Source: Candidatus Eiseniibacteriota bacterium (GTDB lineage: Bacteria; Eisenbacteria; RBG-16-71-46; CAIMUX01; VGJL01). From it: a stretch of 64,000 bases of DNA. A model generated the notes under the pieces. That model was not told the DNA's origin. It made no database searches and saw nothing but the letters and a program-made list of their open reading frames with translations. The DNA lies in the NCBI GenBank assembly GCA_963792585.1, contig CAWBWI010000006.1, positions 1,006,009-1,070,008 on the forward strand, read 5' to 3'. This document shows positions 2,486-24,810 of this stretch, piece by piece (positions within the stretch are counted from its first letter, which is position 1; the number at the start of each line of letters is the position of its first letter). The position numbers were made by a program, and so were the translations under genes.

Positions 2486-3985
2486 CTATCGTGGAAGGAT
2501 GCTCACGCGGGAACCCAGCGCTTCTCCTTCCGTCCCGATGCGAACGAAGTAGGTTCCCGGGGAAACGAGACGGGCCGCCTGATCTCTGCCGTCCCACACG
2601 GGCCGGTTCGACCGGCCGAGAACGCGCACGAGCCTTCCCGCGGAATCGAAGATCCGCACATCGAGCTCTCCGAGACTCTCGGGGGCAACGATGCGTACAT
2701 CGCCGGCGCTTGGATTCGGAACGGCGCGGAGATGCTCTCGAGCAAGGACCCCATCGCCCACCGCCGCAATCCCTTCGAGAGCCGCGGGGAGATAGATCCG
2801 TCCGCTGCCGAGCTTGCCCTGGTATGGATCATTGCCCGGAATCTGGTCGATCGGATCGACGGCGGACTCGATCCGCAGTCGGACGACCTCGGGAATCTCC
2901 AGTGGAAGGAGACTTCGTATCAGGGCGGCCTCGCCGGCAACAAAGGGCGTGGCGAAGGAGCATCCGGCCCCCATGGCCCATAGCCCGCCCGGATAGGAAC
3001 TCCGAACGCCGGTACCGGGGGCGGCTACCAGGACCTTGGAATGCCAGTCGGCAAAGGCGGCTTTCGTGTCCAGCGAGTCGACGGCGGTCACCATTTCCGC
3101 CTCTTCCGTCCCGGCGGGATAGTAGAGTTGCTCCAGATTGTCGTTGCCGGCCCCGGCGACGACGATGATGCCGTGTTCCCGGGCCAGCTCGAGCTGATGG
3201 CGAATGATCGCGACCCCGCGGGGAACTCCGAAGCTCATATTGAGCACATGGGCCCCTTGATTCACCGCGTAGCTGATTCCCTTTGCGATCTGGTATGCGT
3301 CGCCGTTGCCCTCGTCGCTGAGGACGCGAATGGGAAGGAGCGTGGCCTCCGGGGCGACCAGAGCCACGATGCCGGCGACCATGGTCCCGTGACCGTAACC
3401 CTCGTCCGCGACGCCGTCCTGATCTTCATCCAGTCCGTTGGCGATCTCCCAGGGACTGCTGTCATCGTCGACGAAGTCGTATCCGAACGGGGAGAGCTTC
3501 GCTTGGATCGCTTCATGGCCGGGATCCACGCCCGTGTCCAGAACGGCAACGGTGACGCCGGCGCCTCGGCTCATCAGGTGCGCGGCATCGAGACCGATTC
3601 GAGGGCCGATGCTCTGATCTTCGTAGTCGACGTAGCCTCCGCCGACGATGACGATCACCATCTGACGGATGGTCTCCGGCGTGTCGTGGAAGTAGTTGGC
3701 CTCGGCCTCCAGGATTGCCGGATCGGTTTCCATCTGCGATGCCAACCCTTCGACGTCACCCAAATCGGTCGCATCGAGAAGGTACAGGTTCCCTTCCGGG
3801 TAGGCGTCCAGTGTGGTGGTCCCCCAAACGGAGTTGACCTCCTCGATGACATGCCCAGGCTGCAGGTTCACAACCACCTGAGCGGCCTCGTAGTCATCGG
3901 CGATCGCCAGGGCGGGCAGGAGCAGCCCGATCGCGCAGAGGACCCGGCCCATCAGCGGTTGCAGAAGCTTCACGTTGCTCCTCAT
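2486..3985 (-). CDS. Secreted S8 subtilase #1 with C-terminal FlgD-Ig/T9SS-like sorting domain
   Basis: Signal peptide after ATG 3985. Catalytic triad VLDTG / HGTMVAG / GCSFATP. C-terminus PNP...DSAGRLVR...WDGRD...GTYFVR. Confidence 0.9.
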   Translation of the reverse strand: MRSNVKLLQPLMGRVLCAIGLLLPALAIADDYEAAQVVVNLQPGHVIEEVNSVWGTTTLDAYPEGNLYLLDATDLGDVEGLASQMETDPAILEAEANYFHDTPETIRQMVIVIVGGGYVDYEDQSIGPRIGLDAAHLMSRGAGVTVAVLDTGVDPGHEAIQAKLSPFGYDFVDDDSSPWEIANGLDEDQDGVADEGYGHGTMVAGIVALVAPEATLLPIRVLSDEGNGDAYQIAKGISYAVNQGAHVLNMSFGVPRGVAIIRHQLELAREHGIIVVAGAGNDNLEQLYYPAGTEEAEMVTAVDSLDTKAAFADWHSKVLVAAPGTGVRSSYPGGLWAMGAGCSFATPFVAGEAALIRSLLPLEIPEVVRLRIESAVDPIDQIPGNDPYQGKLGSGRIYLPAALEGIAAVGDGVLAREHLRAVPNPSAGDVRIVAPESLGELDVRIFDSAGRLVRVLGRSNRPVWDGRDQAARLVSPGTYFVRIGTEGEALGSRVSILPR

Positions 3986-4070
3986 CTCTCTCGGCCCCTG
4001 CCCGGGCGCAGGAACGGCGGGTAACACCCTCGTCGGCCCGGCCCTCGACCATCGGGGGCGACCTGAACGA

Positions 4071-4106
4071 CTCCTTGCAGTCGTCCATATTTCGGCGATT
4101 GATACA
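4071..4106 (-). promoter_or_regulatory. Putative ECF-sigma promoter, copy upstream of S8 #1
   Basis: Minus strand TGTATC-N19-ACTGCAAGGAG. Confidence 0.65.
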
Positions 4107-4206
4107 AAAGGATACCATTCCCCCGTTCCCAGCTTCCATCCCCCGTACCCCAGGGGTGCGCCCGGGGTTTGCGGGCCCGGCGGTCTATCGTGGTAGGATG
4201 CTGACC

Positions 4207-4770
4207 ATGCGTGAGTTGCACGGTTGGGTGGCGGATCTCCAGGCTGGTGACGACGGGGCCTGGAGGGAGTTCATTCGGGTCTTCTCTCGATTCGTCCCCC
4301 TCGTTGCCGGCCGGCTCGGCCTCACGGCGGAAGAAAAGGAGGAAGTCCTCCAGGAGATGACCCTGACCGCCTACCGATCGATCCGGAATCTCCGCGATCC
4401 GGAACGGCTGAGTTCCTGGACGTACACCATCGCCCGCCGGGCGGCCATCACCATGTGGCGCTCCAAGAAACGGCATCCGGGCTCCGAGCATGACGAGGAG
4501 GCGGAATTCGACAGGCTTCCCTCCGGGGAGCCCGCGGTCGATACGATCTTGATCGATCACGAGGAAGGTCAGAAGCTGCGCGAGGCGGTCGCCACGCTTC
4601 GCCCTCTATGCCGTGGGCTCATCGATGACCTCTTCCTGAAGGAACCGCGGCGAAGCTACCAGGAGGTCTCGCAGGAACGGAGCATGCCGATCGGGAGCAT
4701 CGGTCCGACCCTGGCCCGTTGCCTTCAGACCCTTCGCCAGGCATGGAAATCGGTATCAAATACAGGATGA
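4207..4770 (+). CDS. ECF-type RNA polymerase sigma factor #1
   Basis: Region 2 (AWREFIRVF...EEVLQEMTLTAYRSIRNLRDPERLSSWTYTIARR) and region 4 (SYQEVSQERSMPIGSIGPTLARCL). Start is 4198 or 4207. Confidence 0.9.
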   Translation: MRELHGWVADLQAGDDGAWREFIRVFSRFVPLVAGRLGLTAEEKEEVLQEMTLTAYRSIRNLRDPERLSSWTYTIARRAAITMWRSKKRHPGSEHDEEAEFDRLPSGEPAVDTILIDHEEGQKLREAVATLRPLCRGLIDDLFLKEPRRSYQEVSQERSMPIGSIGPTLARCLQTLRQAWKSVSNTG

Positions 4771-4787
4771 GGGTCCTCTGCAATGAG
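4752..4787 (+). promoter_or_regulatory. Putative ECF-sigma promoter overlapping the sigma #1 stop, upstream of anti-sigma-like gene #1
   Basis: GGTATC-N19-TCTGCAATGAG. Confidence 0.6.
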
Positions 4788-4835
4788 TGACCAGTCGTTT
4801 GGGAACCATGTCGAGCCGTTACTAGAGGAGCAACC

Positions 4836-5432
4836 GTGTCGGAGATAACCCGTCCGCAAGATGATCCGCTCCTGCAGGCACCCGAGCTGCGTGAGATGAT
4901 CTGGGCGTTGGAACTTACCTCGGCTCCCGAGTTGAGCCCGCAGAAGGTCGCCACCCTCTGGCGGGAAGTCCGATCGAGGGCATCCGCCGGCGCGGCGCCG
5001 GGCGTTGCAGGAATCCTGAATCAGATGCGCGATGGCTTGGCGCACGCCTTGCGCGAGATTGCCGCGACCCTCGTCCAGGAGTCGCTCGTCCCGTCACCGG
5101 CCGTCCGCAGCACCGAGACGGCCCTGCCGAGGCTCCTGGTTTACGAGACCGATGAGTATGCGATCTCTCTCACGTTTCAGGCGCCCCCCGAGGCGACGCT
5201 TCTGAAGCTCATCGGTCAAGTGGTTCCAAAGCTCGCGCCCGACCTCCCCCCGGGAGGCGAGATCGCCGTGTGGAGCGAGTCCGAGACGAAGTTCGGCCGG
5301 CTTGACACGAACGGCGAATTCTCCGTGGAAGGCGTCCAGAGCGGCGATCTCCACATCGACATCCTGCTCGGGACCGACTCGATTCAGCTTTCTCCGATCC
5401 ACACCGGGGCCTTCCGGGCCAGGGAGGACTAG
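4836..5432 (+). CDS. Soluble putative anti-sigma / CHAT partner #1 (N-terminal helical part plus C-terminal Ig/carboxypeptidase-regulatory-like beta domain)
   Basis: SD GAGGAG before GTG. Lies between the sigma and CHAT genes. Homologous to 23401-24057 (RLLVYE/RQLMFE, IGQVVP/IGQLVP, GRLDTNGEF/GRLSETGEF). No transmembrane segment. Confidence 0.7.
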   Translation: MSEITRPQDDPLLQAPELREMIWALELTSAPELSPQKVATLWREVRSRASAGAAPGVAGILNQMRDGLAHALREIAATLVQESLVPSPAVRSTETALPRLLVYETDEYAISLTFQAPPEATLLKLIGQVVPKLAPDLPPGGEIAVWSESETKFGRLDTNGEFSVEGVQSGDLHIDILLGTDSIQLSPIHTGAFRARED

Positions 5433-5435
5433 AAA

Positions 5436-8246
5436 ATCCCGGACGATCCTGACGAATCGGGCGCCCCGTCTTCCGACGCTCCCCAACTTCTGCGATCGCT
5501 CGAGGATCCGCACTGGGTCCCGAGCTTCCGTGAGGCAACGATCCTGCGAGATCATGTCGCCTCTCTCCTCCAGGCCGACCCGCGACTCGCCGGTCGGATC
5601 GCCATGGATCTCCTGCGCTCCGTTCAGGGCAAGACCTCGGCATCCATCGGCGCGCAAGCCGTCGGATGGAGGGCGCGGGCCGAGTCCCTGCTGTATGCCG
5701 GCGAGTACAAAGCCGCCCGATCCGCTTACGAGAAGGCATGCTCTTGCGCCGGCGCCGCCTCGGAGCATCGTCTTCTCGGCCAAATCCTCGTAGGCAGGAT
5801 CGGCACCCTCCTCGTGATGGGCGATTTCCGCTCGATCCACGCGATGACCCGCCAAGCGGAGGCCTTGCTGCGAAGGAACGACGATCAGGAGTATCTCCGG
5901 CGTCTCCACATCAATCTGGGGAGCGGTCTCTACCATCGCGAGAAGTACGCCGAAGCCTACGCCTCCTTCGCCGAGGCCCTTCGACTGATGGAGGAGGCGG
6001 GCCAGCACGACGATCTGTGGGCGTCCCTGACGCTCAACTTCGGGATCGCGTGCAGCCAGCTCGCGCGCGTGCAGGAGGCGCGCGAGGCGTTCGCGAAGGC
6101 GGAGGCGTACGGCCGCGCCCACGCGCAGGACCGCATGGTGGCCCAGGCGGTGTTCAATCTGGGGGCCCTCGAGGGGCTCCGCGGCGGTTACCGCGCGGCC
6201 CTTCGGTCGCTCACCGAAGCCGAGGAAGCGTTCGTCCGTCAGGGAGTGCAGGAGCTCCTCGCGGCCACCCACCTCGAGCAGGCCCAGATCTATCTCGATC
6301 TATCCATGGCCACCGAGGGCAAGGAGCTTGCCCAGAGGGCGGCCTCCGCATTCACCTCGGAAGGGATGCTCCTCGACGCGCAGCTGGCGCGGATCGCGGA
6401 GGCGCGAAGCCTCGTGATGTTGGGACGGCCCAAGGAGGCGGAGGGGCTTCTGCGCGATGCCGAGCGCTTCTACCGGGCGCAGCACATCGCGGCAAGAAGA
6501 GCGCAGGCCCTGCTGGACATCGCGCTGGCGATGTCGGCCCGCGACGAGACGGCAGCCGCGATGCAAACGGCCCGCAGCGCGCTCAGCGTGGCCGAGCGAT
6601 TGCACCTGGGAAGCCTGACCTGCGCTTGCCGTTGTCTCATCGCAGAGCTGCTCCTCCGAACTGGTGCCGGGCCCAAGGCTGAACGCGCCCTGGCGGGCAT
6701 CGTCCCGGGGCTTTCGAAATTGCCGATGCGCGATCGCCTCGAATACTGGAGCACGGCCGCGCGGGTCGCGGCGTTCCGAGGAATGACCGCGCTGGCCGGA
6801 CGCCGCTACCGCAGGGCAACGCAGTGTTTGGAAGCTCAGAGGGCACTGATTCCGGGTCTCGAACTCCGCACGAAGTCGTTCGAACAGAACGTCCGCGTCT
6901 ACCACGAGAAGATCGCGCTCCTGGCGGGGTCTCGACGCCCCCAACTCGATCGCATCCTGCTCCTGATGGAGCGGGCGCGGGGTAGAACGTTCCGGGAGCT
7001 CGTGGCCGCGCGGGGCCGGCAGTCGCAGGGGGAGATTGCGGAGCTCCGAGCCGTGCTCGGCTCCCTGGTGCGGCGCCTCGACCACCTCGTGATGGGAGAG
7101 CGTCCGGCGGCGCCCCAGGAGGTAGAGCCCCTCCGACGGCAGGTCGTGCAGCTCGAACACCAGATCACCTCGCGCGTGCGCCGGATCGAGACGACGGAGG
7201 GGTCCGTCACCGGAAGCGGTTCGTTCCGAAGGTCATCCCAGATCGTCCCCCTTCTCGCCGCCGACGAGGTGATGATCGAGTACTTCGTAGCGAAGGATCG
7301 AATTCTGGCGGCGGTGGTGGGAAAGCAGGAGCGTTTCCTGCGGACGCTCGAGGCACCACTGCCCAGGCTACGGGATCTCCTCGACCATTTCGGCCTCCAA
7401 CTGGAATCGCTCGCCGCCACCGCGAGCCGACCCTTGGGGGGCCAGGCGTTCCTGCGACGGAGCGCGGAAGCGAAACTGGAGGAGTTCTACTCGTTGCTCC
7501 TCCGACCCATCCTCGGGGATCTTCCCCCCTGCGGACGGCTCACGATCATTCCGCACGACATCCTGCACCAGATCCCGTTCGAGTGTCTTCACGACGGAAC
7601 TCAGTACCTCGATCGTTCTTGGCAGATCACGCGGTGCCCGACGGCAGATTTCCTGATCGAGCGCAGAAGTCGGTCACGGGGGGCCCCCGTAGGGAATACG
7701 GTGGTCATCGCCGGAACTCGCCCCGGATCCCCATTCATCGAGGTGGAAGCACGGCGGGTGCTGGATTCCTGGGAGCCGTCCGGCAGCCGGTTGTTGGTCG
7801 ATCCATCCTCTGCCGATGCTCTGGCCGCCATGAAGGGGGCCCGGGTCATTCACGTGAGCGCCCACGGCAACTTCCGCGGCGACAACCCCCTATTCTCGAC
7901 GCTGCACCTCGGTCGTGAGGTGCTCTTTCTGGCCGATATCCTGGAGACGCCCCTCACCGCCGACCTGGCCGTTCTGAGTTCCTGCGACAGCGGACAAACA
8001 TTCAGTGGCCGAGGGGACGCCCTACTGGGCGTCGCACATGCATTCCTCGCCGCCGGCACGGACCGCCTGGTGGCCTCCCTCTGGCGCGTCCACGATCAAG
8101 CCACGGCTTCCTGGATGGAGGCCTTTCACCGCGCCTTGCGGGAGAGCGGGGACGCCCCGGCGGCCCGCCTTCACGCTTGCCAGGTGGTTCGGGAAGAGTG
8201 GCCGCATCCCTTCTACTGGGGCGGATTCAGCGTTCTCGGAGGCTAG
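5436..8246 (+). CDS. TPR-CHAT (caspase HetF-associated) protease #1; start probably upstream of ATG 5604
   Basis: Long TPR region, LTIIPHDILHQIPFECL, catalytic His (IHVSAHG) and Cys (LSSCDSG), VASLWRVHD, HPFYWGGF. The frame is open back to 5433 and homology with the paralog extends upstream of Met 5604. Confidence 0.9.
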   Translation: MPDDPDESGAPSSDAPQLLRSLEDPHWVPSFREATILRDHVASLLQADPRLAGRIAMDLLRSVQGKTSASIGAQAVGWRARAESLLYAGEYKAARSAYEKACSCAGAASEHRLLGQILVGRIGTLLVMGDFRSIHAMTRQAEALLRRNDDQEYLRRLHINLGSGLYHREKYAEAYASFAEALRLMEEAGQHDDLWASLTLNFGIACSQLARVQEAREAFAKAEAYGRAHAQDRMVAQAVFNLGALEGLRGGYRAALRSLTEAEEAFVRQGVQELLAATHLEQAQIYLDLSMATEGKELAQRAASAFTSEGMLLDAQLARIAEARSLVMLGRPKEAEGLLRDAERFYRAQHIAARRAQALLDIALAMSARDETAAAMQTARSALSVAERLHLGSLTCACRCLIAELLLRTGAGPKAERALAGIVPGLSKLPMRDRLEYWSTAARVAAFRGMTALAGRRYRRATQCLEAQRALIPGLELRTKSFEQNVRVYHEKIALLAGSRRPQLDRILLLMERARGRTFRELVAARGRQSQGEIAELRAVLGSLVRRLDHLVMGERPAAPQEVEPLRRQVVQLEHQITSRVRRIETTEGSVTGSGSFRRSSQIVPLLAADEVMIEYFVAKDRILAAVVGKQERFLRTLEAPLPRLRDLLDHFGLQLESLAATASRPLGGQAFLRRSAEAKLEEFYSLLLRPILGDLPPCGRLTIIPHDILHQIPFECLHDGTQYLDRSWQITRCPTADFLIERRSRSRGAPVGNTVVIAGTRPGSPFIEVEARRVLDSWEPSGSRLLVDPSSADALAAMKGARVIHVSAHGNFRGDNPLFSTLHLGREVLFLADILETPLTADLAVLSSCDSGQTFSGRGDALLGVAHAFLAAGTDRLVASLWRVHDQATASWMEAFHRALRESGDAPAARLHACQVVREEWPHPFYWGGFSVLGG

Positions 8247-8279
8247 GGCGCCTCGCCTCCTCTTCGGGTTCCTCCTCCC

Positions 8280-9365
8280 TCACTTCCCCCCGTACTTCAT
8301 CCGCATGATGTCCTGTGTCGACCGACTGATGCGCTTCCACCGGGCCTGCTCTTCGAGTCGCAGGCGAATGTCCTGCTTCCTCTCGAGGAAGCGCAGCTCG
8401 CGCCGGAGCTTCACGTAGCTCGCGTAGCGCGCCTCCTGCAGGGTGCCGTCCTCGAGCGCCCGGCGCACCGCGCAATCGGGCTCGCTCTGGTGTTGGCAGT
8501 CGGCGAAGCGACACTCCGCAGCGATCTCCTCGATGTCGTGGAACGCCGCGTCCAGACTCTCCTCGTCGGCCCAGAGCTGGACCTCGCGCATCCCCGGCGT
8601 ATCGATGACAATTCCCCCACCCGGCAGCAGGAGAAGCTGCCGCCAGGTCGTGGTGTGCCGGCCGCGGCCGTCGGAGTCTCGAATCTGCGTGGTCTTCAGC
8701 CGCTCTTCGCCAAGGAGACGGTTGATGATCGTGGACTTTCCGACTCCCGACGAACCGATGAGGGCGACCGTGTCTCCCTCACCGACGTACGAGCCGAGCG
8801 CATCGAGGCCGTTGCCGTCGAGCGCGCTCACCGCAAGCACGGTTGCGCCGCCGGCGACGACCTCGATCTCGCGCACCAGAGACGCGGCGTGGGCATTCAG
8901 ATCCGCCTTGTTGAGCACGACCACCGGCCGCACGCCGCTCTCGCGCGCGATGGTGAGGTAGCGCTCGAGCCGCCGCGGATTAAAATCCTTGTCCACGTCG
9001 GTGACGATGAAGAGCGTGTCGAGATTCGCCGCGATGACCTGTGCTTCGGTCAACATCCCGGCCGCCTTTCGCAAGAGCAGCGTCCGGCGTGGCAGCACCG
9101 CGTGGATGATGGCCGTCGAATCGCCGTTCAACTGCAGCGCCACCCAATCCCCGACGGCCGGAAAGTCGAGACGCGATGCGGCCGTGTACCGCAACCGGCC
9201 GGTCACCTCGGCGTCGCGCACTCCCTCGACACAGAAAACCGCGTAACGATCCCGATGTTCTTCCGCGACCCGCGCCGGGATGAACCCGGCGTCATGATGT
9301 GGCTGGAAACTCTGTTCGAAAGATGCCTGCCATCCCAGTTGATGGAGGTCGAATTCGATACCCAT
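8280..9365 (-). CDS. rsgA: Ribosome small subunit-dependent GTPase A
   Basis: Circularly permuted GTPase motifs NKAD, GSSGVGKST, GRHTTT, DTPG, plus the zinc finger CRFADCQHQSEPDC. Confidence 0.95.
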   Translation of the reverse strand: MGIEFDLHQLGWQASFEQSFQPHHDAGFIPARVAEEHRDRYAVFCVEGVRDAEVTGRLRYTAASRLDFPAVGDWVALQLNGDSTAIIHAVLPRRTLLLRKAAGMLTEAQVIAANLDTLFIVTDVDKDFNPRRLERYLTIARESGVRPVVVLNKADLNAHAASLVREIEVVAGGATVLAVSALDGNGLDALGSYVGEGDTVALIGSSGVGKSTIINRLLGEERLKTTQIRDSDGRGRHTTTWRQLLLLPGGGIVIDTPGMREVQLWADEESLDAAFHDIEEIAAECRFADCQHQSEPDCAVRRALEDGTLQEARYASYVKLRRELRFLERKQDIRLRLEEQARWKRISRSTQDIMRMKYGGK

Positions 9366-9483
9366 GACGATTGCACCTCTGATTCTCGGTGAGCCAATGA
9401 TTGCCGAACCCGCTACGCGCGGGAACGGAATATCCGGGTGGAATCGAGGTGTGTTCGGAGAGCGGACTCAGCGGGCCGAGAAA

Positions 9484-13620: not shown

Positions 13621-13703
13621 GGCCAAACTGACGGGGTTGCCCCCCTCAGGTGCGCGCTGGTAGGCTGCCCTGGCCGTCACTCCGGGATCATGGAGGTTCG
13701 TCC

Positions 13704-15281
13704 GTGAGTCTGCTTCGCCCGCCCGAGTCCCTGCCGCGGGACTACACCGAGATCTGGAAGGCCTTGCGCGACGCGGACGGCCGGGCGACTTCGCGACAGG
13801 CGCTCGCCGAGCAACTCGGCGTGTCGACACACACCCTGCAACGGATCCTGGTCCGCGGCGACGTACCGGTCTTCTCGGATGCGACAAGCACCCGCGTCGT
13901 CCACTCCTGGACCCGCACTCTCACCCGTGTCGCCTCGCGCCTCGGCTTCCAGCCTCGAGCGTGGATCGAGAGTGTCGGCATCCCATGGACCGCGGAGATC
14001 CGCAAGATCTCGGACCAATCGATCCAAGGCGCGCGCGCGACGCGCCTGCGCTCCGAGAAACGCGCTCCCGTCGGCGACACAACGGGCGGCGTGCTTCGCG
14101 TGGGCATCGTGGATCGTCCCACTTTCGGGGCCTTCCTGACCGACGCCGGCGGCTCCTTCCTCGAGGCCGCCATCCGGCGCATTCTCCATTCCATCGACCC
14201 GGCGGCGAGAATTCAGATCGAGCTGACACGGGAAGACGAGGCGCTCGCCGAGATGGAGCGCCCGACCTCCCGCTTCGACCTTGCGGCCGGCGTTCTCGAT
14301 ACGACCGCCCGGCGGCGGCGAGGACTCGACTTCGTCGCGATCCCAGGCTGGAATGTGCGTCTCGACGCAGTTTGCGTCGCTCGGCGAGAGCTCGCCTCGA
14401 GCCTCTCCCGCTGGAGCGCCTGGATCGGGCCGACCTGCACGGTTCCGATCCTCGCGGCGGATGGCAGCGCCGCCCACGCGTACATCTCCGGCGCTTCGGG
14501 CCTCCCCGAGCCGCGGCTGCGCATCCTCCCGTCGAGCGACGGAATTGCCAACGCACGCGCGCTCATCGAGGAAGCGCGGCACAGCCCCGAGGGAGCGGCC
14601 ATCCTCGTGTGTGACGGCGATTCGATCGGCGGTCCCCCAAGCGTGGGGGTGACGGAGATCCTCGAGGGGGACACGGAACTCGCCCGCGCGTTTGCGATCG
14701 TCTCGATGGGGGACGCCGCCGCGGCGCCCGCATTCCCCATCGCGATCGCCGCGATCGACAATGGTCCGATTCCCACACACCTCATGCGACGCGTCATGGA
14801 GCACGAGCTCTTCCGCGTCGGCGCCATCGCCACGGCCCATCTCTATGCGACATTGGCAGCGTCGTTCCACCGGGCGATCGAGGACTTCCCGCAGGCGAAT
14901 CCCGTCTTCCGTCAATCGGTCTGCGACTTCCTGGTGGCCCTCGTCCGCCCGCCCGAGTATGCACGCACCCTGATCCCGATCGCGTGGCATCCGCATCTCG
15001 ACGCGGCGCTGCGCGGGGAACTCGATCCGACGCGGCTTTCCGTTTCACCGCACCAGTGCCAGTCCTGCTCCGCGTCTCTCGACGACGGCGTGCACGGAGG
15101 TGTCTCGGACCACTACTGCCGGTTCTGTTCCGACGAGCAGGGACGCCTCCGGCCGCGCGAGCAGGTGCAGGGGGTGATCGCGCGCTGGCTGCAGGGCTGG
15201 CAGGGGGGAATCCCCGAGCAGGAGGCGATGCGGCGCGCAGCGGTCTTCATGCAGGCGATGCCCGCCTGGAGTCACAACTAG
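13704..15281 (+). CDS. Putative regulator: N-terminal HTH, substrate-binding-like middle, C-terminal zinc ribbon (Zn_ribbon_2-like)
   Basis: SD GGAGG before GTG 13704. SRQALAEQLGVSTHTLQRIL (HTH), LRVGIVDRPTF (PBP-like), CQSC...YCRFC...MPAW. Confidence 0.65.
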   Translation: MSLLRPPESLPRDYTEIWKALRDADGRATSRQALAEQLGVSTHTLQRILVRGDVPVFSDATSTRVVHSWTRTLTRVASRLGFQPRAWIESVGIPWTAEIRKISDQSIQGARATRLRSEKRAPVGDTTGGVLRVGIVDRPTFGAFLTDAGGSFLEAAIRRILHSIDPAARIQIELTREDEALAEMERPTSRFDLAAGVLDTTARRRRGLDFVAIPGWNVRLDAVCVARRELASSLSRWSAWIGPTCTVPILAADGSAAHAYISGASGLPEPRLRILPSSDGIANARALIEEARHSPEGAAILVCDGDSIGGPPSVGVTEILEGDTELARAFAIVSMGDAAAAPAFPIAIAAIDNGPIPTHLMRRVMEHELFRVGAIATAHLYATLAASFHRAIEDFPQANPVFRQSVCDFLVALVRPPEYARTLIPIAWHPHLDAALRGELDPTRLSVSPHQCQSCSASLDDGVHGGVSDHYCRFCSDEQGRLRPREQVQGVIARWLQGWQGGIPEQEAMRRAAVFMQAMPAWSHN

Positions 15282-15969: not shown

Positions 15970-16134
15970 CGGCCCTCCCGGCGCCAGCATACCGATCGCC
16001 CCATGGCCCTGCACGATCGGCTTCTCTTCTGGTAACCATCTTGTGAATTTTGATATTCTTATAACGCTGTCGCATGAATGGCGGAGATGTCGGATCTCCC
16101 GCCCGGGCTCAACCACGCCGGAGGCAATTCCTAT

Positions 16135-18749
16135 ATGACGCGGCCCATGACGATCCTCACCCTCGTCCTAGCCCTGAGCACCATCGCCCTGGCTCCGCCG
16201 GCGGCGGCCGCCCCCGCCCCCGGGCTGGAGGTCTGGTCCCCCGGAGATCCCGACCCGACCATTCCCTTCTCGGATCGGTTTCCCGTCGCCGTCCAGACGA
16301 CGACGGAGTCCGACGCGAGGGTGATCGTCGCCACGGGGATCGACGTCGAGGACGTGCGGCGATACGAGGGCGGCTGGATCGTCCGGGCGAACATCGATGA
16401 GGCGGAGCTCGCCTCGCTCGCCGGCCCGAGCCGGGAGATCGTTCGGCTCCGGAATCTGGCGCTCGAGTCGGCGCGGGCGGAGGGCCGGGATCGTGCATGG
16501 CCGACCTGGGCGGAATACGAGGCGAGCCTCCAGCAGATTGCGCAGGATCATCCGACGATCGTCCGTCTGCTATCCATCGGCCAGACGGTGCAGGGTCGGC
16601 AGATGTGGATTCTCAAGATCACGGACAACCCCGACGTCAACGAGGACGAGCCCGAGTTCAAGTACACCTCCAGCCTTCACGGCGACGAGGTCACGGGGAT
16701 GGAGATGTGCCGCCGCCTGGCGGGCCTCCTGACCGACGGCTACGGCGTCGATCCGACGCTGACCGACTACGTCAACAACGCGGAGATCTGGATCCAGCCG
16801 ATGAGCAACCCCGACGGTTTCGTCGCGGTCTCCCGCTACAACGCGAGCGGCATCGATCTGAACCGCGACTTCCCCGATCCGGTCAACGACCCGGTGGACA
16901 ACCCTGCGGGGCGGGCGATCGAAACGCAAAATCTGATGAACTTCGGCTACGCCCACCGGTTCATTCTCTCGGCGAACTACCACGGCGGCGCGCTCGTCGT
17001 GAACTACCCATGGGACAGCTTCGTGGGATACACGCCGGACGACACCATGATCGAGAACTTCTCGCTCGGCTACGCCTTCCGGAACCCCCCGATGTGGAAC
17101 TCATCGGAGTTCCTCCACGGGGTCACCATCGGTTGGGCTTGGTACATCATCGACGGCGGGATGCAGGACTGGTGCTACAACTGGCGCAATGAGATCGACG
17201 TGACGATCGAGGTCTCGAACACGAAGCGCCCGAGCTGGACGCTGATGGACCAGTTCTGGACCGAGAACAAGGATGCGATGATCTGGTATCTCGCCCGCGT
17301 CTTCGTCGGCGTCCGTGGAATCGTGACCAACGCGGTGACCGGCCTGCCCGTCGACGCGACGGTCGATATCGTCCAGATCGGCAAGTCGATCCGCACCGAT
17401 GCATCGATCGGCGACTACCACCGGATGCTGGAGCCCGGGACCTACACCGTGAAGGTCGACGCGGCCGGGTACGTGTCGCAGCAGATCCCGAACGTGGTCG
17501 TCGTCGACGGCCCGGCAACGCGCCTGGACATCGCCCTCCAGCCGCTGCCGACCTACACGGTCAGCGGGACCGTGACGGAAGAGGGACCGGATCGCCGCTC
17601 GGCGGAACCGTCGAAGCGCGCCGCATCACCGACGGGCAGCTGGTCGGAACGGCGCCGACCGATCCCGCCACGGGCGCGTACGCGCTCTCCCTCCTGAGTT
17701 CGACCTATGACATCCGCGCGACGGCGCCGGGCCACGCTCCGGTGACGCGCCGCATGACCGTCGAACAGGATCGCACCGAGGACTTCGTGCTCGCGCTCAC
17801 CGCCAACAGGATCCTGATCGTGCGGGACGTGGTGGCGACCCGCATCGCGAGCGATCTCGCGAGTCTCGGGAACCTGACGACCGTCGAGGCCTCCAGCGTG
17901 ACCGATCCCGCATCCTGGTCCGGCTACCGCATGCTGGTCTGGAGCGCCGGATCCGCCGCGGACCCGGTCGCGGACGCCACGCGCCGGGCTGGATTGGAGA
18001 GCTATGTCGCAGCGGGCGGCACGCTGCTGATCGAGGGCGGACAGATCGGCTACGACGTCTTCCGCACGCCCGGCTATCCGACGTTCGGGGCGAATGTCCT
18101 GCACTGCTCGGCATGGGATGTGAGCAGCGCCGGACCGATCTCGATCGCGACAGGGCAGTCCGGGCACGCTCTGGTGACGACCCCGAATACGCTGCCGTCG
18201 CAGTACGCGATCAACTACACGGAAACCGGCGACGAGGACGCGGTTCGACCGCTCGCGAACGCCCTCATGATCTACAGGACCCAAGCCTATCCGAACGATG
18301 GCGGGATCATCGTCTATGACGACACGCCGGTCGATCCGGCCCGCGGCCAGATCGTCTACTATGCCTTCAACTACGACAGACTCACCGATACGGCGAACGC
18401 GGTGAGGCTTCTCGAGAACACGGTTGCCTACCTGAGCAGGACGAATCCGGCGGACGCCGGCGAGCCGGTTCCAACTCTCGCGGCGCTGCTCGGCCCGGCA
18501 TTCCCGAACCCAGCGCAGGGAACCGTCCGATTCCGGATCGATCCGCGGGCGGGGCGTTCGCTCCGAGCGGAGGTGATCGACCTGCAGGGGCGCGTGATTT
18601 GCGCGCTGGTCGTTGATGAGGCCGAAGGCGCGCTCACATGGGACGGGCGCACCGGTCTGGGCCGCGTGGCGCCGACGGGAATCTACTTCCTGAAAGCGCG
18701 CAGCGGCACGGAGGAGGCCGCCCGCAGCTTCCTCTGGATCCGTCCGTAG
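16135..18749 (+). CDS. Secreted M14 (N/E-type) zinc carboxypeptidase with regulatory-like repeats and FlgD-Ig domain; one frameshift near 17585
   Basis: HGDE, RYN, DLNRDFP, NYHGG, TIEVS. Adding one G at GAGGGACC (about 17583-17585) joins ORF 16078-17697 to 17742-18749 through TGSPLGGTVEARR...YDIRATAPGH. Confidence 0.85.
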
Positions 18750-18784
18750 GTGCGAGAGCACCAGCGGTCGACGACAAGCGGGGA

Positions 18785-20314
18785 CTAGCGGTCCAGGACG
18801 ATTCGTCCCTGGAGCGATCCTCCGTCGACGTGCACGAAGTAGACGCCGGGCGGGACCGCTCGACCCGAAGCGTCCCGTCCATTCCAGCGCGCCAGACCGG
18901 TGGGTCCGGGTTCGATCGTCCGGACGCGGCGACCCGCTGCGTCGACGACGACCATCCGGGAAAGCCCGCCGGTGTTGCCGAGCCTGAAGGAAACCCCCTG
19001 TCCGACCCGGGCGGGATTCGGGAAGAGTTCGAGGCGCCCTACCGTCAAGCCCGTGCCGTCGACGTCCGCAGTCTTGGGGCTCGCGACCCACGTCGCCATC
19101 CCGTCGAAGCGCCCGCTACCGAGTTGGCCCTCGTAGGGCCCATTCTCCGGGATTTGGTAGATCCCGACGACCCCGAGCCCGACGGTGCCGTAGACAGTCT
19201 GTACGCTTGCGTCGGGCTTCAGCGACAGGACGAGGGCGCACTGCCCGCTGACGAATGGCGCCGAGAAGGACGTCCCGGCTCCGATCGCATACTCCCCGTC
19301 GTAGAAGGGTGCCAGCACTCCATCCCCGGGCGCGGCGACGTCGACGGTCGATCCATAGCTCGTAAAGCTCGTCCGGACGTCGACGGAGTCGAGTGCCGCG
19401 ACGGAGACGACCTGAGGGTCGCTTGCGGGGTAGTAGACGGGATAGTCGGAACCGCCGTTGCCGGCCGCACCCACCATCGCGACCGACAAGTCGTAGGCCG
19501 CGCGGACCTCATGCCTGATGACCATGCACTCCTGGGTCAGCCCCAGGCTCAGGTTGATTACCTGCGCGCCATGCTCGACCGCATAGCGGATCCCCTTGGC
19601 GACATGGAAGGTCGTTCCACGACCTTCGTCGTCGAGGACCCGGATGGGCAGGATCCTCGCATTCGGGGCGACGAGGTGCACGATCCCGGCCACCATCGTT
19701 CCGTGGCCCGCCCCATCATCGGTCAAACCGTCGAGGTCATCATCGGCCCCGTTGGCCTCATCGAGTGGATCCGCGTCGTTATCCACGAAATCCCAGCCAT
19801 TCGGATCGATCGCGCCGTTGAAGGCCGGGTGATCGGGAAGCACCCCTGTGTCGATGACGGCGACCAGGACGCCGTCCCCCATCGTGTGGGACTGGATCTC
19901 GGCGAGACGGATCCGCGTGGTCAGGTGCTGGTCGAGATAATCCGTAATGGTCCCGCCTACGGCGGCGACCATCATCTGCCGCGTGCCCTCGGGGGTTTCG
20001 TTGTCCCACGAGTACTCGGCCTCGACCACGTTCGGATTCTGGCGGATCTGGTAGACATATTCGGCTTCGCTGCCGTCGGGGCACCGCAGCAGGTAGAGCG
20101 GCGGCAGAGAATCAAGCGTCGAGGTGCCATAGAGATCATTGATGACCGAAATCGGCGTCCCCGGAATGAGCTCCACCTGGAGTTGTCCGATTTCCCAGTC
20201 GTCCGCGAAGCTGCGCTTCGCCTCTGCGCCCATGAGCAATGCCACGAGTAAGGCGATGAGCGCGGGCACGAGGGTCAGGCGTCTGCGGCGAATGGAGATT
20301 GTCGAGCGATCCAT
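18785..20314 (-). CDS. Secreted S8 subtilase #2 with C-terminal FlgD-Ig/T9SS-like domain
   Basis: SD GGAGG, signal peptide, VIDTG / HGTMVAG / GTSFSAP. Closely parallels S8 #1 (TPE.RQM, PY.G.LGSGR). Confidence 0.9.
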   Translation of the reverse strand: MDRSTISIRRRRLTLVPALIALLVALLMGAEAKRSFADDWEIGQLQVELIPGTPISVINDLYGTSTLDSLPPLYLLRCPDGSEAEYVYQIRQNPNVVEAEYSWDNETPEGTRQMMVAAVGGTITDYLDQHLTTRIRLAEIQSHTMGDGVLVAVIDTGVLPDHPAFNGAIDPNGWDFVDNDADPLDEANGADDDLDGLTDDGAGHGTMVAGIVHLVAPNARILPIRVLDDEGRGTTFHVAKGIRYAVEHGAQVINLSLGLTQECMVIRHEVRAAYDLSVAMVGAAGNGGSDYPVYYPASDPQVVSVAALDSVDVRTSFTSYGSTVDVAAPGDGVLAPFYDGEYAIGAGTSFSAPFVSGQCALVLSLKPDASVQTVYGTVGLGVVGIYQIPENGPYEGQLGSGRFDGMATWVASPKTADVDGTGLTVGRLELFPNPARVGQGVSFRLGNTGGLSRMVVVDAAGRRVRTIEPGPTGLARWNGRDASGRAVPPGVYFVHVDGGSLQGRIVLDR

Positions 20315-20524
20315 GAACACCTCCAATAGATGCTCTGATTCATGATATGCGCAAACATCATAGCAGAGAGAGCGCGATTCGTTCAAAGCCGTTCCCAGTA
20401 CACCGATTCCCTCCGGGACCTGGAGCTGACCGAAGGGTCAGCAGCGGCCGTCGCGACAAATATCCAAGAAACTGATCTAATAATGATCATGCCATTAGGC
20501 CAACTCACGATTCGACCCGAGAGG

Positions 20525-23404
20525 CTATCTCCCGATGCCTCCGAGCGACGCGAATGAGGCCCAATGCCATGGATGGGGACGCCGGATCATGAGGGAACGC
20601 ATCGCGCGGCCCAGCGCGATCGCCGGGGCGTCCCCCGTCGCGAACGAATCGTAGAAGAACTCCATCAACTCGAGGGTCGGGTCGTCCTGGATCGGCCAGA
20701 GACTCGCAACGACCGAGGAGGCACCCGCCTGCAGAAAGCCTCGAGCAAGCCCGATCCACTCGTCCCCTACGGGAGCGGCGCCCCGGCCCGAAGAGCAAGC
20801 CGTCAGCACCACCGTGGACGAGGGAAGGCGAAAGTCCGCCAGGTCGTGAACGAAGAGCGGCCCATCCGCCAACTGGACGAAGGAGTAGGCAGGGTTGTCG
20901 CGACGCAGCATTCCGTGGGCCGCGATGTGGATGAGGTGCGCCCGTCGACCTTCCCGGCGCATGCTTTCGATCGTGGGCGCGAGGTCGGAGTGAATCTCCC
21001 AACCGGGCAGGTTTGCCTGAACGCGCTCCACCTCGACCGCCACCGAAGGCAGTAGATCCGAAGGGACCCCCGCGACGAAGGCGGCCCTCCCTGCGCGCGC
21101 CGGAGCGGGAGGAAGTGCGCGCCAGATACGCGCGCTGGGGACGATGGCGATGTCCGTCCGCTCGGCGATGTAGCCGTCGCGGCCCCGCAGAGCATGAAGC
21201 GGCACGCGATGGATCGCTCCGTGCGGAGAGACGATCCAGCGCAATGACGCATCCACGCCCATCTGCTCGAGAGGCTCCCAGAGGAGTCCGTGGAGCTCCG
21301 CGAGAATCGCGTCGGCGGAGGATTGAAGACGCCGCTCCGCGGCGCTCGGCGCACACGATTCGGTGGCGGCCAATTGCGCGCCGCGCACGCTCGTCATGGC
21401 CGCAGCGGTCCACTGGAAATCGAGTCGGTCGGTCAGACGGGCGAGCCGTGCGCCGAGATCGTTCGCCAGGCGGCGCCAGACGGAGCCATCGCGGGTCACG
21501 GCGAGCGCCACTGAGAAATCAGGCCCGATGTGGTAGGCGAGGAAGCCCCAACCCCGTGGGAGATCACGTTGGAGTTCCGGTAGCGAGGGGGGCTCTCCGC
21601 TTCCGATCCGGTCGCGACCGGATCGACGCTCTCGATCCTCGCGCAGGGCCTTGCTCCACTCCCCCTCCGTGGCGATCAAGCGCGGGCGGAGCTCGATTGC
21701 GCGCGCGCGATCCTCGGGCGAGCCGAGTTCCAGGCGGGAGATCCGCGCGTGCAGCCAGGCAAGCCGACGCCGCGCAGCGGTGAGGCGACGATCCCGCGGC
21801 CTCTCCCCCTCGAAGAGGTAGGCATCGGGGTCGCGCAGGCGATCCCAGAGGCTCTGGGCGCGGGCGCGTTCCGTCCACTCGAACAGCCGATCGATCGAAG
21901 GCCGCGGGCGATCGATCTCGATCGCGAGGAGACGGTCGTGGAGGTGGTTCTTGTCGCCGAGGAAGGCGATCTTCGAGTCTTCGGTCGGGATTCGAGAGCG
22001 CAGATCCTCGAGTCGGGTCAGGGCGTTTCGGTAGGAGCGGCTCGCCTCGCCGGACTTGCCGGCTTGCTCCTGCGCCCTACCGAGCGCCTCGAGCAACCGA
22101 TAGGCGGGGATCGGATAGACCTGCTGGGGCAGGCGACGGAGCAGCCGGCGAAGCCGGGGAATTCGCTCCTCTCCCGTCTCCCGCCGCTCGAGCAGCTCAT
22201 CCAGAAGAACGGTTGCCGTCGACTCCCATCGGATCAGACCGAGCCGCTCGAAGGCATCGATGGCGGCGCGCACGCGTCGCTCCGCCTCGGCGCGCCCCCC
22301 GCGCCGGCGCAGCGCCTCCCCTTTCAGCATGTCCATCAAGGCGACACGGGGCGCGTTCTTCTCCTTCCGGAAGAGTCTCTGGCCCCGCCGGATCCGATCG
22401 AGCGCCGTCGGGAGATCCCCGAGCGCCATGCTCGAGAGGGCCTCCTGGCTGAGAGCCAACGCCTCGTCGTATGCGAGCCCCTCTTCAGCGAACAAGGGGA
22501 TCGCCTGTCTCGAGAGATCGAGCGCCTCCTGATGGAGGTTCAACTGGTGGTAGATCTCGGCTCGGTTGAGAAGACACTCCGCTTCGAACGCAGGATGCTC
22601 TGTTTGGTGGAAATAGGTGGTCAAGAGGCTTATCTCTCGGAGTGCCTTGCCAAAATCCGCCCTTTGAGCGTGCACATAGGCGGCATTCATCCGAACTTGG
22701 GCCTGGAGAACCTCGAAACCGCGCTTGCCGGTTTCCTTCTCCAGCCGCTCGAAAAGGGCCAGCGCCTCTTCGTCTCGGTCGAGCTGGCTCAGGGCGACCC
22801 CTCGATTGACTTCCAATCCGAGGACCGTTTCGTCCCGGATGCGAAGCCTGCGAAAGATCTCCGAGGCCCGTTCGATCTCCTCGAGCGCCGGGCCGTAGCG
22901 GTCGTGCTGGAAGTGGCTCGAGCCGAGGTTCATGGCGAGCTTGGCCAGATAGGTCTGATCCCCCGCCTCCTCGAGATTGCGGCGGGCTTCGATCACGGCT
23001 TTCTCGGCGTCGCGATGGCGGCCGAGGAGCGAGAGGACATGGACGGCGCCGACGAGGAGTTGACCGAGAAGGCCCGGAGCACTCGCCCGCCGCCAGGCCT
23101 CGGCAGCCTGGGTGTAGGAGGCATTGGCATCACGCATCCGACCGGAGAAGAGGAGCGACTCGGCCACCGCGCGGTGGCCCCAACCGAGGGAGAGGGGATC
23201 GCCGAGAAGCTCGGCGAGTTCGAGGGCGCGCGAGGCGATCCGCCGGGCGGCGGAAGCATCGGTGTGGTAGAAAGGGACCGCCTCCATCCGGAGGGCCTGA
23301 ACCCAGCCGGCTCCGGTCCCAGGTAGTCCTTCCCGAACGCGCCTCCCTAGCTCCTGGGAGGAGGCATCAACCAGATCCTTCGTGCTCGGAGGACTACCGG
23401 TCAC
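20525..23404 (-). CDS. TPR-CHAT protease #2
   Basis: TPR region, SPHGAIHRVPLHAL, catalytic His (IHIAAHG) and Cys (LTACSSG), VASLWPIQD, HPWHWASF. Start overlaps the upstream stop (GTGA). Confidence 0.9.
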   Translation of the reverse strand: MTGSPPSTKDLVDASSQELGRRVREGLPGTGAGWVQALRMEAVPFYHTDASAARRIASRALELAELLGDPLSLGWGHRAVAESLLFSGRMRDANASYTQAAEAWRRASAPGLLGQLLVGAVHVLSLLGRHRDAEKAVIEARRNLEEAGDQTYLAKLAMNLGSSHFQHDRYGPALEEIERASEIFRRLRIRDETVLGLEVNRGVALSQLDRDEEALALFERLEKETGKRGFEVLQAQVRMNAAYVHAQRADFGKALREISLLTTYFHQTEHPAFEAECLLNRAEIYHQLNLHQEALDLSRQAIPLFAEEGLAYDEALALSQEALSSMALGDLPTALDRIRRGQRLFRKEKNAPRVALMDMLKGEALRRRGGRAEAERRVRAAIDAFERLGLIRWESTATVLLDELLERRETGEERIPRLRRLLRRLPQQVYPIPAYRLLEALGRAQEQAGKSGEASRSYRNALTRLEDLRSRIPTEDSKIAFLGDKNHLHDRLLAIEIDRPRPSIDRLFEWTERARAQSLWDRLRDPDAYLFEGERPRDRRLTAARRRLAWLHARISRLELGSPEDRARAIELRPRLIATEGEWSKALREDRERRSGRDRIGSGEPPSLPELQRDLPRGWGFLAYHIGPDFSVALAVTRDGSVWRRLANDLGARLARLTDRLDFQWTAAAMTSVRGAQLAATESCAPSAAERRLQSSADAILAELHGLLWEPLEQMGVDASLRWIVSPHGAIHRVPLHALRGRDGYIAERTDIAIVPSARIWRALPPAPARAGRAAFVAGVPSDLLPSVAVEVERVQANLPGWEIHSDLAPTIESMRREGRRAHLIHIAAHGMLRRDNPAYSFVQLADGPLFVHDLADFRLPSSTVVLTACSSGRGAAPVGDEWIGLARGFLQAGASSVVASLWPIQDDPTLELMEFFYDSFATGDAPAIALGRAMRSLMIRRPHPWHWASFASLGGIGR

Positions 23405-24057
23405 TCATCCAGGCCTGCTTCCAGGTCGATCGGATCGCTGACCAACTCCCGGCCGGCCCACGCAATCCGTATCCGGACCGGGCCACCGGGGATCCCATCG
23501 ATGCGGAACTCCCCCGTCTCGGAGAGGCGCCCCCGGGGCGATCCCTGCTCGACCTCGACACGAACCACCCCACCCCGGAGGCGATCCGCCGGGTTCGAGG
23601 GCACCAGTTGACCGATCACCGTATAGGATCCGGAACCGGCCTCCACCTGGAGGTGGAGACTCCCGAGTGGTGATTCGAACATGAGCTGCCGATGCTCGGA
23701 GACTGCGGAGCCCCGGATTCCCTGCATGGACGCGCCGATCGCCGTGTCGAGGACGAGTCCCAGGCGGACCTCCTCGAGGACCCGCCGGACCTTCTCCTTC
23801 ACCGCACCGATCGCGGTGCGGGACGTCTGCCCCTGCCGGAGCGCCGCGATCTTCTCGAGCGCGGAATGAACGAACGCCTCCGGGGCCACAGACAACGGCG
23901 GGACGCGCAGGGCGGCCAGGATCTCTCTGGTCGAGGCGACCCTCTCGGAACATCGCTCGCAGCCCGTCTCGAGATGGCGGCGGACCTGCTCCACGGCCGG
24001 CGCATCGTCCGACTCGCAATACTCCAACAGGTTCTCGTCGCTCGGATGCCGGTTCAT
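23401..24057 (-). CDS. Soluble putative anti-sigma #2 with zf-HC2-like motif and C-terminal beta domain
   Basis: MNRHPSDENLLEY...HLETGCERC (ZAS/zf-HC2-like). SD GGAGG. No transmembrane segment. Confidence 0.75.
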   Translation of the reverse strand: MNRHPSDENLLEYCESDDAPAVEQVRRHLETGCERCSERVASTREILAALRVPPLSVAPEAFVHSALEKIAALRQGQTSRTAIGAVKEKVRRVLEEVRLGLVLDTAIGASMQGIRGSAVSEHRQLMFESPLGSLHLQVEAGSGSYTVIGQLVPSNPADRLRGGVVRVEVEQGSPRGRLSETGEFRIDGIPGGPVRIRIAWAGRELVSDPIDLEAGLDE

Positions 24058-24124
24058 GGCTCGCCCCTCCAGGAAGGTGGTGTTCTGTTTGCTCGGCGGC
24101 TCCCTGTGAGATTGTCATTCGAGA

Positions 24125-24151
24125 AGTCGACCTAGGAGCTGGGCTGATACA
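24125..24151 (-). promoter_or_regulatory. Putative ECF-sigma promoter upstream of anti-sigma #2
   Basis: TGTATC-N18-ACT immediately after the sigma #2 stop, in the same position as the module 1 copy. Confidence 0.55.
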
Positions 24152-24156
24152 CGCCT

Positions 24157-24810
24157 CTAACCGGTCCACCCCCGTTCCTCGTAGATGCGGCGCATCTTCT
24201 CCAAGCAGCGGGCCCGGGTGGGACCGATGCTCCCGACCGGAAGCCCCTCCCGACGGGAGATCTCCCCATAGTCGGGGGAAGGATCTTCGTAGAAGAGAAT
24301 CTGAAGCAGGCGACGGCAACGCCCCGGCAGTCTCTCGAGCGCCTCCGCGATCTGCTGGGCCCGCTCGAGTTCCACCCGGCTGTGATCCGGCAGATCCCCC
24401 GAGTCGGGAGGATCGACCATGACGCGGCCCGAGCCCTCGTCCCCCTCTTCCAAGGCGGTCTCCCGCGCACGGGTCCGCGAGCGGATTCGGTTGATCGCCT
24501 GGCGGTAGGTGATCCCAACGATCCAGGAGGCAAGGCTCTCGCGGTTTCGTAGCCTGCCCAGGTCCGCGTAGATCACGAGCATCGACGATTGAAAGGCATC
24601 TTCCTGGTCTTCATCGGGCAGACCGACCTTCAGAATCGTCGAGTAAATTAGGTTCGCATAGCGCCGGAGGAACTCCTCCCATGACTCGGGTCGTTGGGCG
24701 ATGCAAGCGTCGATCAACTCGATCGCGGTGAGGGCGCGCAAGGCGGCGGAAGTTCCACCGGGCAGGAAGGATCGCTTCCGCCCTGGTCGCGACGAGGCCT
24801 CGTTCGGCAT
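24157..24810 (-). CDS. ECF-type sigma factor #2
   Basis: WEEFLRRYANLIY...EDAFQ...LRNRESLASW, and DYGEISRREGLPVGSIGPTRARCLEK. Same subfamily as #1 (shared GSIGPT.ARCL). Confidence 0.9.
   Translation of the reverse strand: MPNEASSRPGRKRSFLPGGTSAALRALTAIELIDACIAQRPESWEEFLRRYANLIYSTILKVGLPDEDQEDAFQSSMLVIYADLGRLRNRESLASWIVGITYRQAINRIRSRTRARETALEEGDEGSGRVMVDPPDSGDLPDHSRVELERAQQIAEALERLPGRCRRLLQILFYEDPSPDYGEISRREGLPVGSIGPTRARCLEKMRRIYEERGWTG

Follow-up and report, generated by a model that had tools for sequence, protein, structure and literature searches.

What does a caspase-like protease do beside a sigma factor of the extracytoplasmic function (ECF) type? The question is raised by a stretch of 64,000 nucleotides from Candidatus Eiseniibacteriota bacterium (contig CAWBWI010000006.1, positions 1,006,009 to 1,070,008; hereafter the window), which carries two four-gene modules, A and B, each with genes for an ECF sigma factor, for a protein encoded directly after it (the +1 protein), for a protease with tetratricopeptide repeats (TPR) and a CHAT domain, and for an S8 subtilase. 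The answer that we hold to be probable, though well short of certain, is that each module is a cytoplasmic proteolytic switch: the +1 protein would hold the sigma factor, the CHAT protease would cut the +1 protein after an arginine (R115 in module B), and the freed sigma factor would transcribe promoters of the GTATCA type. A preliminary description of this DNA had proposed a stand-alone proteolytic switch, of which the stand-alone unit, the soluble anti-sigma factor, the cytoplasmic CHAT protease and the sigma-driven secreted protease are retained on the grounds of linkage, a zinc motif, a complex prediction, a conserved arginine and the positions of promoters, whereas its novelty and its duplication are not. 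The gene set is already catalogued and is not a discovery; what is added here is the anti-sigma reading, the arginine, and the promoter with its predicted regulon.

Two modules with an ECF54-like gene content

Both four-gene sets are present in the layouts first described, and all eight open reading frames (ORFs) are confirmed. Relative to the sigma gene, the S8 gene lies at −1 in module A and at +3 in module B, and the CHAT gene lies at +2. Both sigma factors score above the ECF superfamily cut-off. The features are as follows.

2486–3985, minus strand: S8 subtilase A, with a signal-peptide-like start, a propeptide, a Peptidase_S8 domain (Pfam S8, E 4e-38) and a weak C-terminal FlgD-Ig-like domain; ATG at 3985
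4080–4105, minus strand: promoter of S8 A, predicted sigma-dependent, GTATCA-N16-CGAC
4198–4770, plus strand: ECF sigma factor A (GSIGPTLARCL); TIGR02937, 55.3 bits, cut-off 42.9
4753–4779, plus strand: promoter-like site A across the sigma A stop; GTATCA at the conserved position, −10 part deviating and about 2 nt short
4836–5432, plus strand: +1 protein A, predicted anti-sigma; by alignment, zinc motif lost, Arg loop (R91, AVR/S) and beta-sandwich kept
5433–8246, plus strand: TPR-CHAT protease A, open frame from the +1 stop, first ATG at 5604; Pfam CHAT, E 2e-43
18785–20314, minus strand: S8 subtilase B, with a signal-peptide-like start and a weak FlgD-Ig-like tail; Pfam S8, E 5e-43; start refined to 20314
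20525–23404, minus strand: TPR-CHAT protease B; Pfam CHAT, E 7e-50, and TPR_12; start overlaps the +1 stop
23401–24057, minus strand: +1 protein B, with a zinc anti-sigma motif, predicted sigma-binding helices, an Arg115 loop (codon 23713–23715) and a C-terminal Ig-like beta-sandwich
24126–24150, minus strand: promoter B, predicted sigma-dependent, GTATCA-N15-CGAC, just past the sigma B stop and facing +1/CHAT/S8
24157–24810, minus strand: ECF sigma factor B (GSIGPTRARCL); TIGR02937, 60.9 bits; ATG at 24810

That the four genes form a functional unit, as had been suggested, is supported by gene neighbourhoods. The loci sampled were 40 regions around 69 sigma matches and 40 more, hand-picked for long contigs, a few of which came from genomes already used. 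The +1, CHAT and S8 genes are all near the sigma gene in 54 of the 68 sigma homologues with enough flanking DNA (24/33 and 30/35), which is far above chance; no S8 gene is near the sigma gene in 9 of these 68 loci and no CHAT gene in 4. Moreover, the pairwise identities of the four genes are correlated over 54 modules (Spearman 0.52–0.72, kin among them not being independent), and the sigma profile matches 84 of the 201 genomes of the phylum. The +1 family is itself very large, with 10,261 clusters at 50% identity (E ≤ 0.001), and look-alike clusters occur in Armatimonadota, Chloroflexota and Acidobacteriota. A Nonomuraea locus contains the same four gene types, including a homologous sigma factor and a homologous +1 protein, the latter matched by the +1 profile at E 1e-5 and, in another search, at E 6e-10. 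A search for related loci returned one unrelated ECF and nothing from metagenomes.

The novelty implied by the preliminary description gives way to a published precedent, since the gene set matches the reported context of the ECF54 sigma factors. The relevant passages of PMC7826278 give this context as a carboxypeptidase-regulatory-like domain, always at +1, together with a subtilase and CHAT and TPR proteins; they also give the promoter as GTATCAG / CTCC, no putative anti-sigma factor, and a distribution that is 100% actinobacterial. Proteolytic control of ECF54, without an anti-sigma factor, is suggested in the corresponding passage of PMC8999054. The window sigma factors resemble ECF54 in having a +1 protein, a subtilase and a TPR-CHAT protein adjoining, and in the GTATCAG −35 element of the site in module B. 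They differ in that a zinc anti-sigma motif is usual in the +1 protein here, with sigma binding predicted for +1 B, in that CGAC, CGTC or CACC stands at −10 where ECF54 has CTCC, and in that the host is not actinobacterial (one +1 homologue is labelled Ca. Eisenbacteria). Actinobacterial sigma factors are 30–34% identical to those of the window; those with GSIGP match our own sigma profile at E 6e-40 to 2e-37, a comparison that involved no ECF54 model, and three of them form their own branch, in a fork without support, in a quick tree. The zinc motif and the predicted binding may revise the ECF54 description rather than exclude membership. Literature searches, which covered few subscription papers, found no experimental study of an ECF54-type module.

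How old are the two copies? They had been described as duplicated, with rearrangement in this genome, which is misleading because they are 28–42% identical (sigma 33%, +1 29%, CHAT 28%, S8 42%) and fall in separate clades. Indeed, in a quick tree of 90 sigma rows, sigma A and sigma B belong to clades that each span several families (support by the Shimodaira–Hasegawa-like approximate likelihood ratio test, 97 and 95), and every window gene is nearer to genes of other genomes than to its own window paralogue. The separate clades and the closer kin elsewhere rule out a local duplication; judged from sequence, the two modules are old, divergent copies. In relatives with both module types, these lie on different contigs or, in G025, 393 kb apart. 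The idea that module A is a decaying relic or an assembly error is likewise unsupported: contigs from three other runs cover it at about 93–96% identity, the indels listed for them lie outside its four coding regions, and across the junction of +1 A and CHAT A a fourth run matches the window exactly. An A-type module elsewhere (L054, G017:C3) appears to be in pieces in its +1, CHAT and S8 genes; a close copy in L056 looks intact.

The +1 protein and its conserved arginine

The sigma factor could be held in check by the protein encoded next to it. The two +1 proteins of the window have no Pfam match of their own. An alignment of the family gives the order N-terminal zinc motif (HP...H-x3/4-C-x2-C), helices, variable linker, LxxDS...[GA][IVL]R[GSA], and beta-sandwich. 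The zinc motif, written H-x(3-5)-CxxC, occurs in 125 of 135 full-length homologues and in 35 of 37 further +1 proteins. Within the window it is present only in +1 B (His4, His28, Cys33 and Cys36), as at the N-terminus of zinc-binding anti-sigma factors (ZAS/zf-HC2), and it is absent from +1 A and a few others. At E ≤ 0.1, zf-HC2 is matched by 5 of 32 +1 members and the Pfam family CarboxypepD_reg by 6 of 32, the latter with no match for the window copies. A weak match of +1 B to ChrR (E 0.0017) is far below the cut-off. The AlphaFold model of +1 B has a mean pLDDT (predicted local distance difference test) of 87.6; fold searches with the +1 protein return only generic Ig-like sandwiches (best Z 8.4), with no Foldseek match at E ≤ 0.001.

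The preliminary description had noted that the anti-sigma-like proteins lack a transmembrane segment, and this agrees with their 19-residue hydropathy maxima of 0.83 and 1.14, to be compared with 2.14 and 2.23 at the N-termini of the S8 subtilases, values on account of which the S8 starts look like signal peptides. It had also called for a structure prediction of the sigma:anti-sigma pair. For sigma B and +1 B this gives 0.68, against 0.00 for the best of three controls, with at least 73% contact agreement between runs and a partner pLDDT of at least 72; the mark used was reached by 116 of 157 solved pairs and by 2 of 215 mismatched pairs. The predicted interface with sigma B comprises only +1 residues 6–73, and the contacts run along the sigma factor. 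Because of the zinc motif and the predicted binding of sigma by the N-terminus, the +1 protein looks like the anti-sigma factor that ECF54 was said to lack.

How could such an inhibitor be removed? One residue stands out. Of 150 cluster representatives of the +1 family, 149 have R115, among neighbours (117–121) that vary; 21 of the 22 other Arg positions are kept in 1–81 of the 150, and R123 in 139. In 37 further loci, the arginine is in its column in 33 and shifted by one column in the other 4, and it is present in the Nonomuraea homologue. In the +1 B model, its loop has a pLDDT of around 60 and sits between the first strand and the remaining sandwich. The zinc motif is lost and the Arg loop kept in module A of the window, in L031–L033 and in Nonomuraea. 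By analogy, R115 is the likely cut site for the CHAT protease, since HetF cuts after Arg and the small loop in which Csx29 cuts Csx30 lies away from where Csx30 binds sigma.

Another possibility is that CHAT is an off-switch, which would degrade the sigma factor or the sigma/+1 complex with the +1 protein as an adaptor or co-factor. This would come near the published suggestion for ECF54, for which the passage in PMC8999054 proposes proteolytic control of the sigma factors without an anti-sigma; it would also agree with the predicted induction of CHAT by sigma, as negative feedback expects, and with the position of R115 outside the predicted interface. However, a zinc anti-sigma motif and contacts predicted along sigma fit inhibition, and the sharply conserved loop arginine is in the +1 protein (an equivalent site in sigma was not looked for), so that we consider an off-switch improbable.

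Proteases, promoters and predicted targets

Both CHAT domains keep the His/Cys dyad attributed to them at the outset (His830/Cys870 in B; His811/Cys851 in A, counted from 5433), and each of the two residues is found in 64 of 64 full-length sequences. Glu791 is also kept in all 64 and Asp907 in 63; that one of them anchors a P1 Arg is our guess by analogy with separase, and a literature search found no passage that states it. In the TPR region, Asn159, Asn200 and Asn240 are kept in 61, 63 and 55 of the 64 sequences, which, going by TPR proteins in general, suggests a peptide-binding groove, either for a ligand or for the +1 protein. A fold prediction of CHAT B without an alignment has a pLDDT of 47.9. 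The window CHATs have no signal-peptide-like start, unlike the S8s. A third set of CHAT, ECF sigma and anti-sigma-like genes, of another type, lies at G000:C1:1659862-1666432; its CHAT does start like a signal peptide.

The start of CHAT A is itself a puzzle. Its coding frame is conserved for about 55 codons upstream of the first ATG (5604), back to just past the +1 stop, and the junction has no indel in the contigs of four other runs; for these two reasons, the start codon is probably non-canonical, possibly the ATC at 5436 after GGAGG. Read-through of the stop codon, fusing +1 A to CHAT A, is unsupported; L101 and L102, the nearest relatives, have a different junction.

The S8 subtilases keep the Asp/His/Ser triad, as first described: D164/H213/S357 in the 513-aa frame of S8 A, with the variant GCSF, and D179/H228/S373 in the 533-aa frame of S8 B. 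The A-type S8s mostly have GCSF rather than GTSF at the catalytic Ser. The weak FlgD-Ig-like tail of both is common to many proteins of the genome. By pattern, 55 of 69 S8s carry a conserved PE-x(1,2)-R-Q motif at the junction with the propeptide, and the S8s of the largest family are lipoprotein-like and occur in tandem up to three times.

The promoter positions bear on what the sigma factor does. The −35 pattern [GC]TATC[AC] occurs within 300 nt at the 3' end of the sigma gene, facing +1/CHAT, in 33/41 and 32/41 loci, compared with 7/41 and 6/41 upstream of the sigma gene and a background of 8.9% in random windows. The −10 part follows the subfamily: CGAC in B, mostly CGTC in A, and CACC in the largest family. 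Of the 19 GTATCA-N15/16-CGAC sites in the genome, 8 are both intergenic and placed upstream of a gene; the share is 3 of 56 with other spacings and 56 of 467 for GTATCA by itself, positions being judged against our own crude gene calls. Two of the eight are the modules' own; the six others and one found by hand correspond to about seven further transcription units, mostly for exported proteins (signal peptides called by eye). These predicted targets are a 927-aa protein of no family, an FG-GAP/FlgD protein, a FlgD-containing lipoprotein-like protein, a weak-FlgD protein, a BNR propeller, a small operon with a cytochrome c' gene, and a small lipoprotein-like protein. Motif counts exceed those of the reversed control in G005 (19 vs 3) and G008 (31 vs 9); two genomes in which the sigma profile has no match give 3 vs 3 and 7 vs 5. 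Two targets (L117, L118) recur with the site in relatives, by eye, and in G004 a site lies upstream of a +1 homologue on another contig than the sigma gene. From its sites, the sigma factor appears to control its own anti-sigma, CHAT and a wider exported set, beyond S8. A CGTC-type regulon for sigma A was rejected, with 0 of 9 sites intergenic and upstream. At G000:C6:747506 (minus strand; L113), a promoter-like site precedes an ORF that looks, by eye, like a transposase; the site may have been split from its target by an insertion.

Since the CHAT gene is downstream of the sigma promoter, CHAT might be an output rather than the switch. The +1 protein would then be an anti-sigma run by zinc loss or redox, and CHAT would act on another substrate, for example the S8 precursor, as a protease cascade. 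The E-x(1,2)-R motif at the propeptide junction in 55 of the 69 S8s by pattern would suit such a cascade, as would the finding that SAVED-CHAT cuts a second protease and neither the sigma factor nor its inhibitor (bioRxiv 2023.06.23.546230). However, signal-peptide-like starts are seen in the S8s and not in the CHATs, the Arg loop persists in several +1 proteins that have lost the zinc motif, and the sigma gene lacks a nearby S8 in 9 of the 68 loci and a CHAT in 4; we therefore regard this account as unlikely.

Known systems and meaning for the family

The nearest mechanistic parallel is the type III-E Craspase. As described in the cited part of PMC10028731, the cut that Csx29 makes in Csx30 falls in a small loop of the C-terminal domain, at a distance from the part that binds sigma, and relieves sigma inhibition. 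The window modules share with it a TPR-CHAT protease, a soluble two-domain protein predicted to be an anti-sigma, a predicted cut in a loop of its C-terminal domain, and a sigma factor with sites in its own locus. They differ, as far as that account goes, in having no Cas7-11/crRNA (CRISPR RNA) trigger, in a +1 protein of about 200 aa rather than 565, and in the added secreted subtilase. The Csx29 model scores 29.1 and 34.8 bits on the window CHATs against a cut-off of 300, and Csx30 is absent among the fold matches listed for the +1 protein (in general fold searches, with no direct comparison made). The absence of cas genes from the window, reported earlier, is borne out in that none is recognised by eye in the gene list (Pfam was run on 14 ORFs, in the first 25 kb). 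The cas1 gene of this genome is on another contig, C3 (G000:C3:645909-649294), with a nearby cas7-like gene, type I-E-like by eye, and is unlinked to the modules.

Could the modules nevertheless serve in anti-phage defence or cell death, as a CRISPR-free analogue of Craspase in which a phage product is what the TPRs sense? By sequence, the solved structures that come closest are those of Csx29 proteins (E 1e-6), and characterised CHAT/sigma systems are mostly linked to defence. Against this, the targets predicted are exported proteins of FG-GAP, BNR-propeller, FlgD-Ig and cytochrome types, the Csx29 model scores 29–35 against its cut-off of 300, and the module is stable over many families of the phylum (84/201 genomes). 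A defence role thus seems very improbable.

A second parallel comes from Anabaena, in which, according to the section cited of PMC9457339, HetF-CHAT cuts PatU3 after Arg117. HetF/PatU3/HetZ resembles the window modules in its CRISPR-independent CHAT and in an Arg-cut inhibitor that sequesters a transcription regulator (PMC9457339, same section). It differs in that no homology was found in a comparison of the +1 protein with cyanobacterial proteins of DUF1822, a family linked to PatU3. Homology of the +1 protein to DUF1822 was rejected for want of an alignment (probability 0.2% and 0.1%), and the genome has no PF08852 match. Cyanobacterial plasmids (L146, L151–L158) carry a recurring hypothetical gene (one with a weak sigma-70 match), a DUF1822 gene, CHAT/CHASE2 genes and sometimes S8; their DUF1822 proteins, unaligned with +1, often have a PxMR/S-like loop motif.

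Finally, DdvA/DdvS of Myxococcus brings together an ECF sigma factor, a CHCC zinc anti-sigma domain and a TPR-CHAT in one pathway, as outlined in the cited part of PMC11506125. There, a single transmembrane protein, DdvA, has its CHAT in the periplasm and an active site that is incomplete, whereas the parts in the window are separate and soluble, with a full dyad (PMC11506125, same part). By analogy, the modules would work like Craspase and HetF/PatU3 and, by the features tested, are a member of neither.

Several points weigh against the proteolytic switch. The pass of the complex prediction may reflect a likeness to solved complexes of zinc anti-sigma and sigma factors such as ChrR-SigE, and the ChrR-SigE entry is a weak Foldseek row for the +1 protein. 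The conservation of R115 is in part built into the sequence comparison, because the homologues were found with a profile that contains it; moreover, a structural role for R115 is possible, since R123 is also highly conserved (139/150). The predicted interface is wholly N-terminal of R115, so a cut there alone does not explain the release of sigma. In the second set of loci, the strict CG[AT]C pattern was matched by no more than 3 of 40, because the −10 part varies by subfamily, with CACC for the largest family; the −35 part alone is general. Although the sigma factor is present in G004, the motif is not enriched there (8 vs 14). By the strict pattern, no more than 3 loci have a separate promoter for S8, and a weak housekeeping-type site belongs to S8 B itself. 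Module A has neither the zinc motif nor an internal promoter of canonical form, and its CHAT start is not a normal one; elsewhere some modules lack S8 and others lack +1 and CHAT.

The surroundings of the modules include, between them, a 543-aa protein (13650–15281, plus strand) that has a helix-turn-helix at the N-terminus and a zinc ribbon at the C-terminus, its middle looking periplasmic-binding-like by eye, with weak Pfam matches only. Next comes what looks like one gene split by a frameshift (16078–18749, plus strand), namely an M14 zinc carboxypeptidase ORF (16078–17697) followed by a secretion-tail ORF (17742–18749), convergent with S8 B. The window has no Rfam matches. The RNA run X11 gave flat contig cover across genes of both strands and is uninformative on expression.

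How, then, would the proteolytic switch operate? At rest, the +1 protein would hold the ECF sigma factor through its N-terminal helices. Active CHAT would cut the +1 protein after R115 and destabilise it, and sigma would be freed, probably after further degradation of the N-terminal piece. The freed sigma factor would then transcribe +1, CHAT, S8 and the exported proteins from promoters of the GTATCA-N15/16-CGAC type. More anti-sigma would mean negative feedback and more CHAT positive feedback, a mixture that would suit a pulse or an on/off switch in the service of a secretion or cell-surface programme, not of anti-phage defence. The trigger is the weakest step, the best guess being a peptide in the Asn-lined TPR groove. 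A broader idea, which we think rather unlikely and offer as speculation, is that the ECF54-type cassette is a CRISPR-independent signalling class, very large and spread across phyla (more than 10,000 +1 clusters at 50% identity), whose TPR-caspase would sense a peptide, cut a zinc anti-sigma at an invariant Arg and turn a secretome regulon on; S8 might make the activating peptide, in an autoinduction loop, and Craspase and DdvA might be offshoots adapted to defence.

TPR-CHAT proteases are widespread, and the few substrates known come mostly from CRISPR systems. With a predicted cut site, catalytic residues, a predicted promoter and predicted targets, a four-gene test in a laboratory host is feasible. 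If the proteolytic switch is correct, the ECF54-type sigma factors, which have been listed without an anti-sigma, would after all possess one, a soluble protein which a caspase-like protease removes at a residue that can be predicted.

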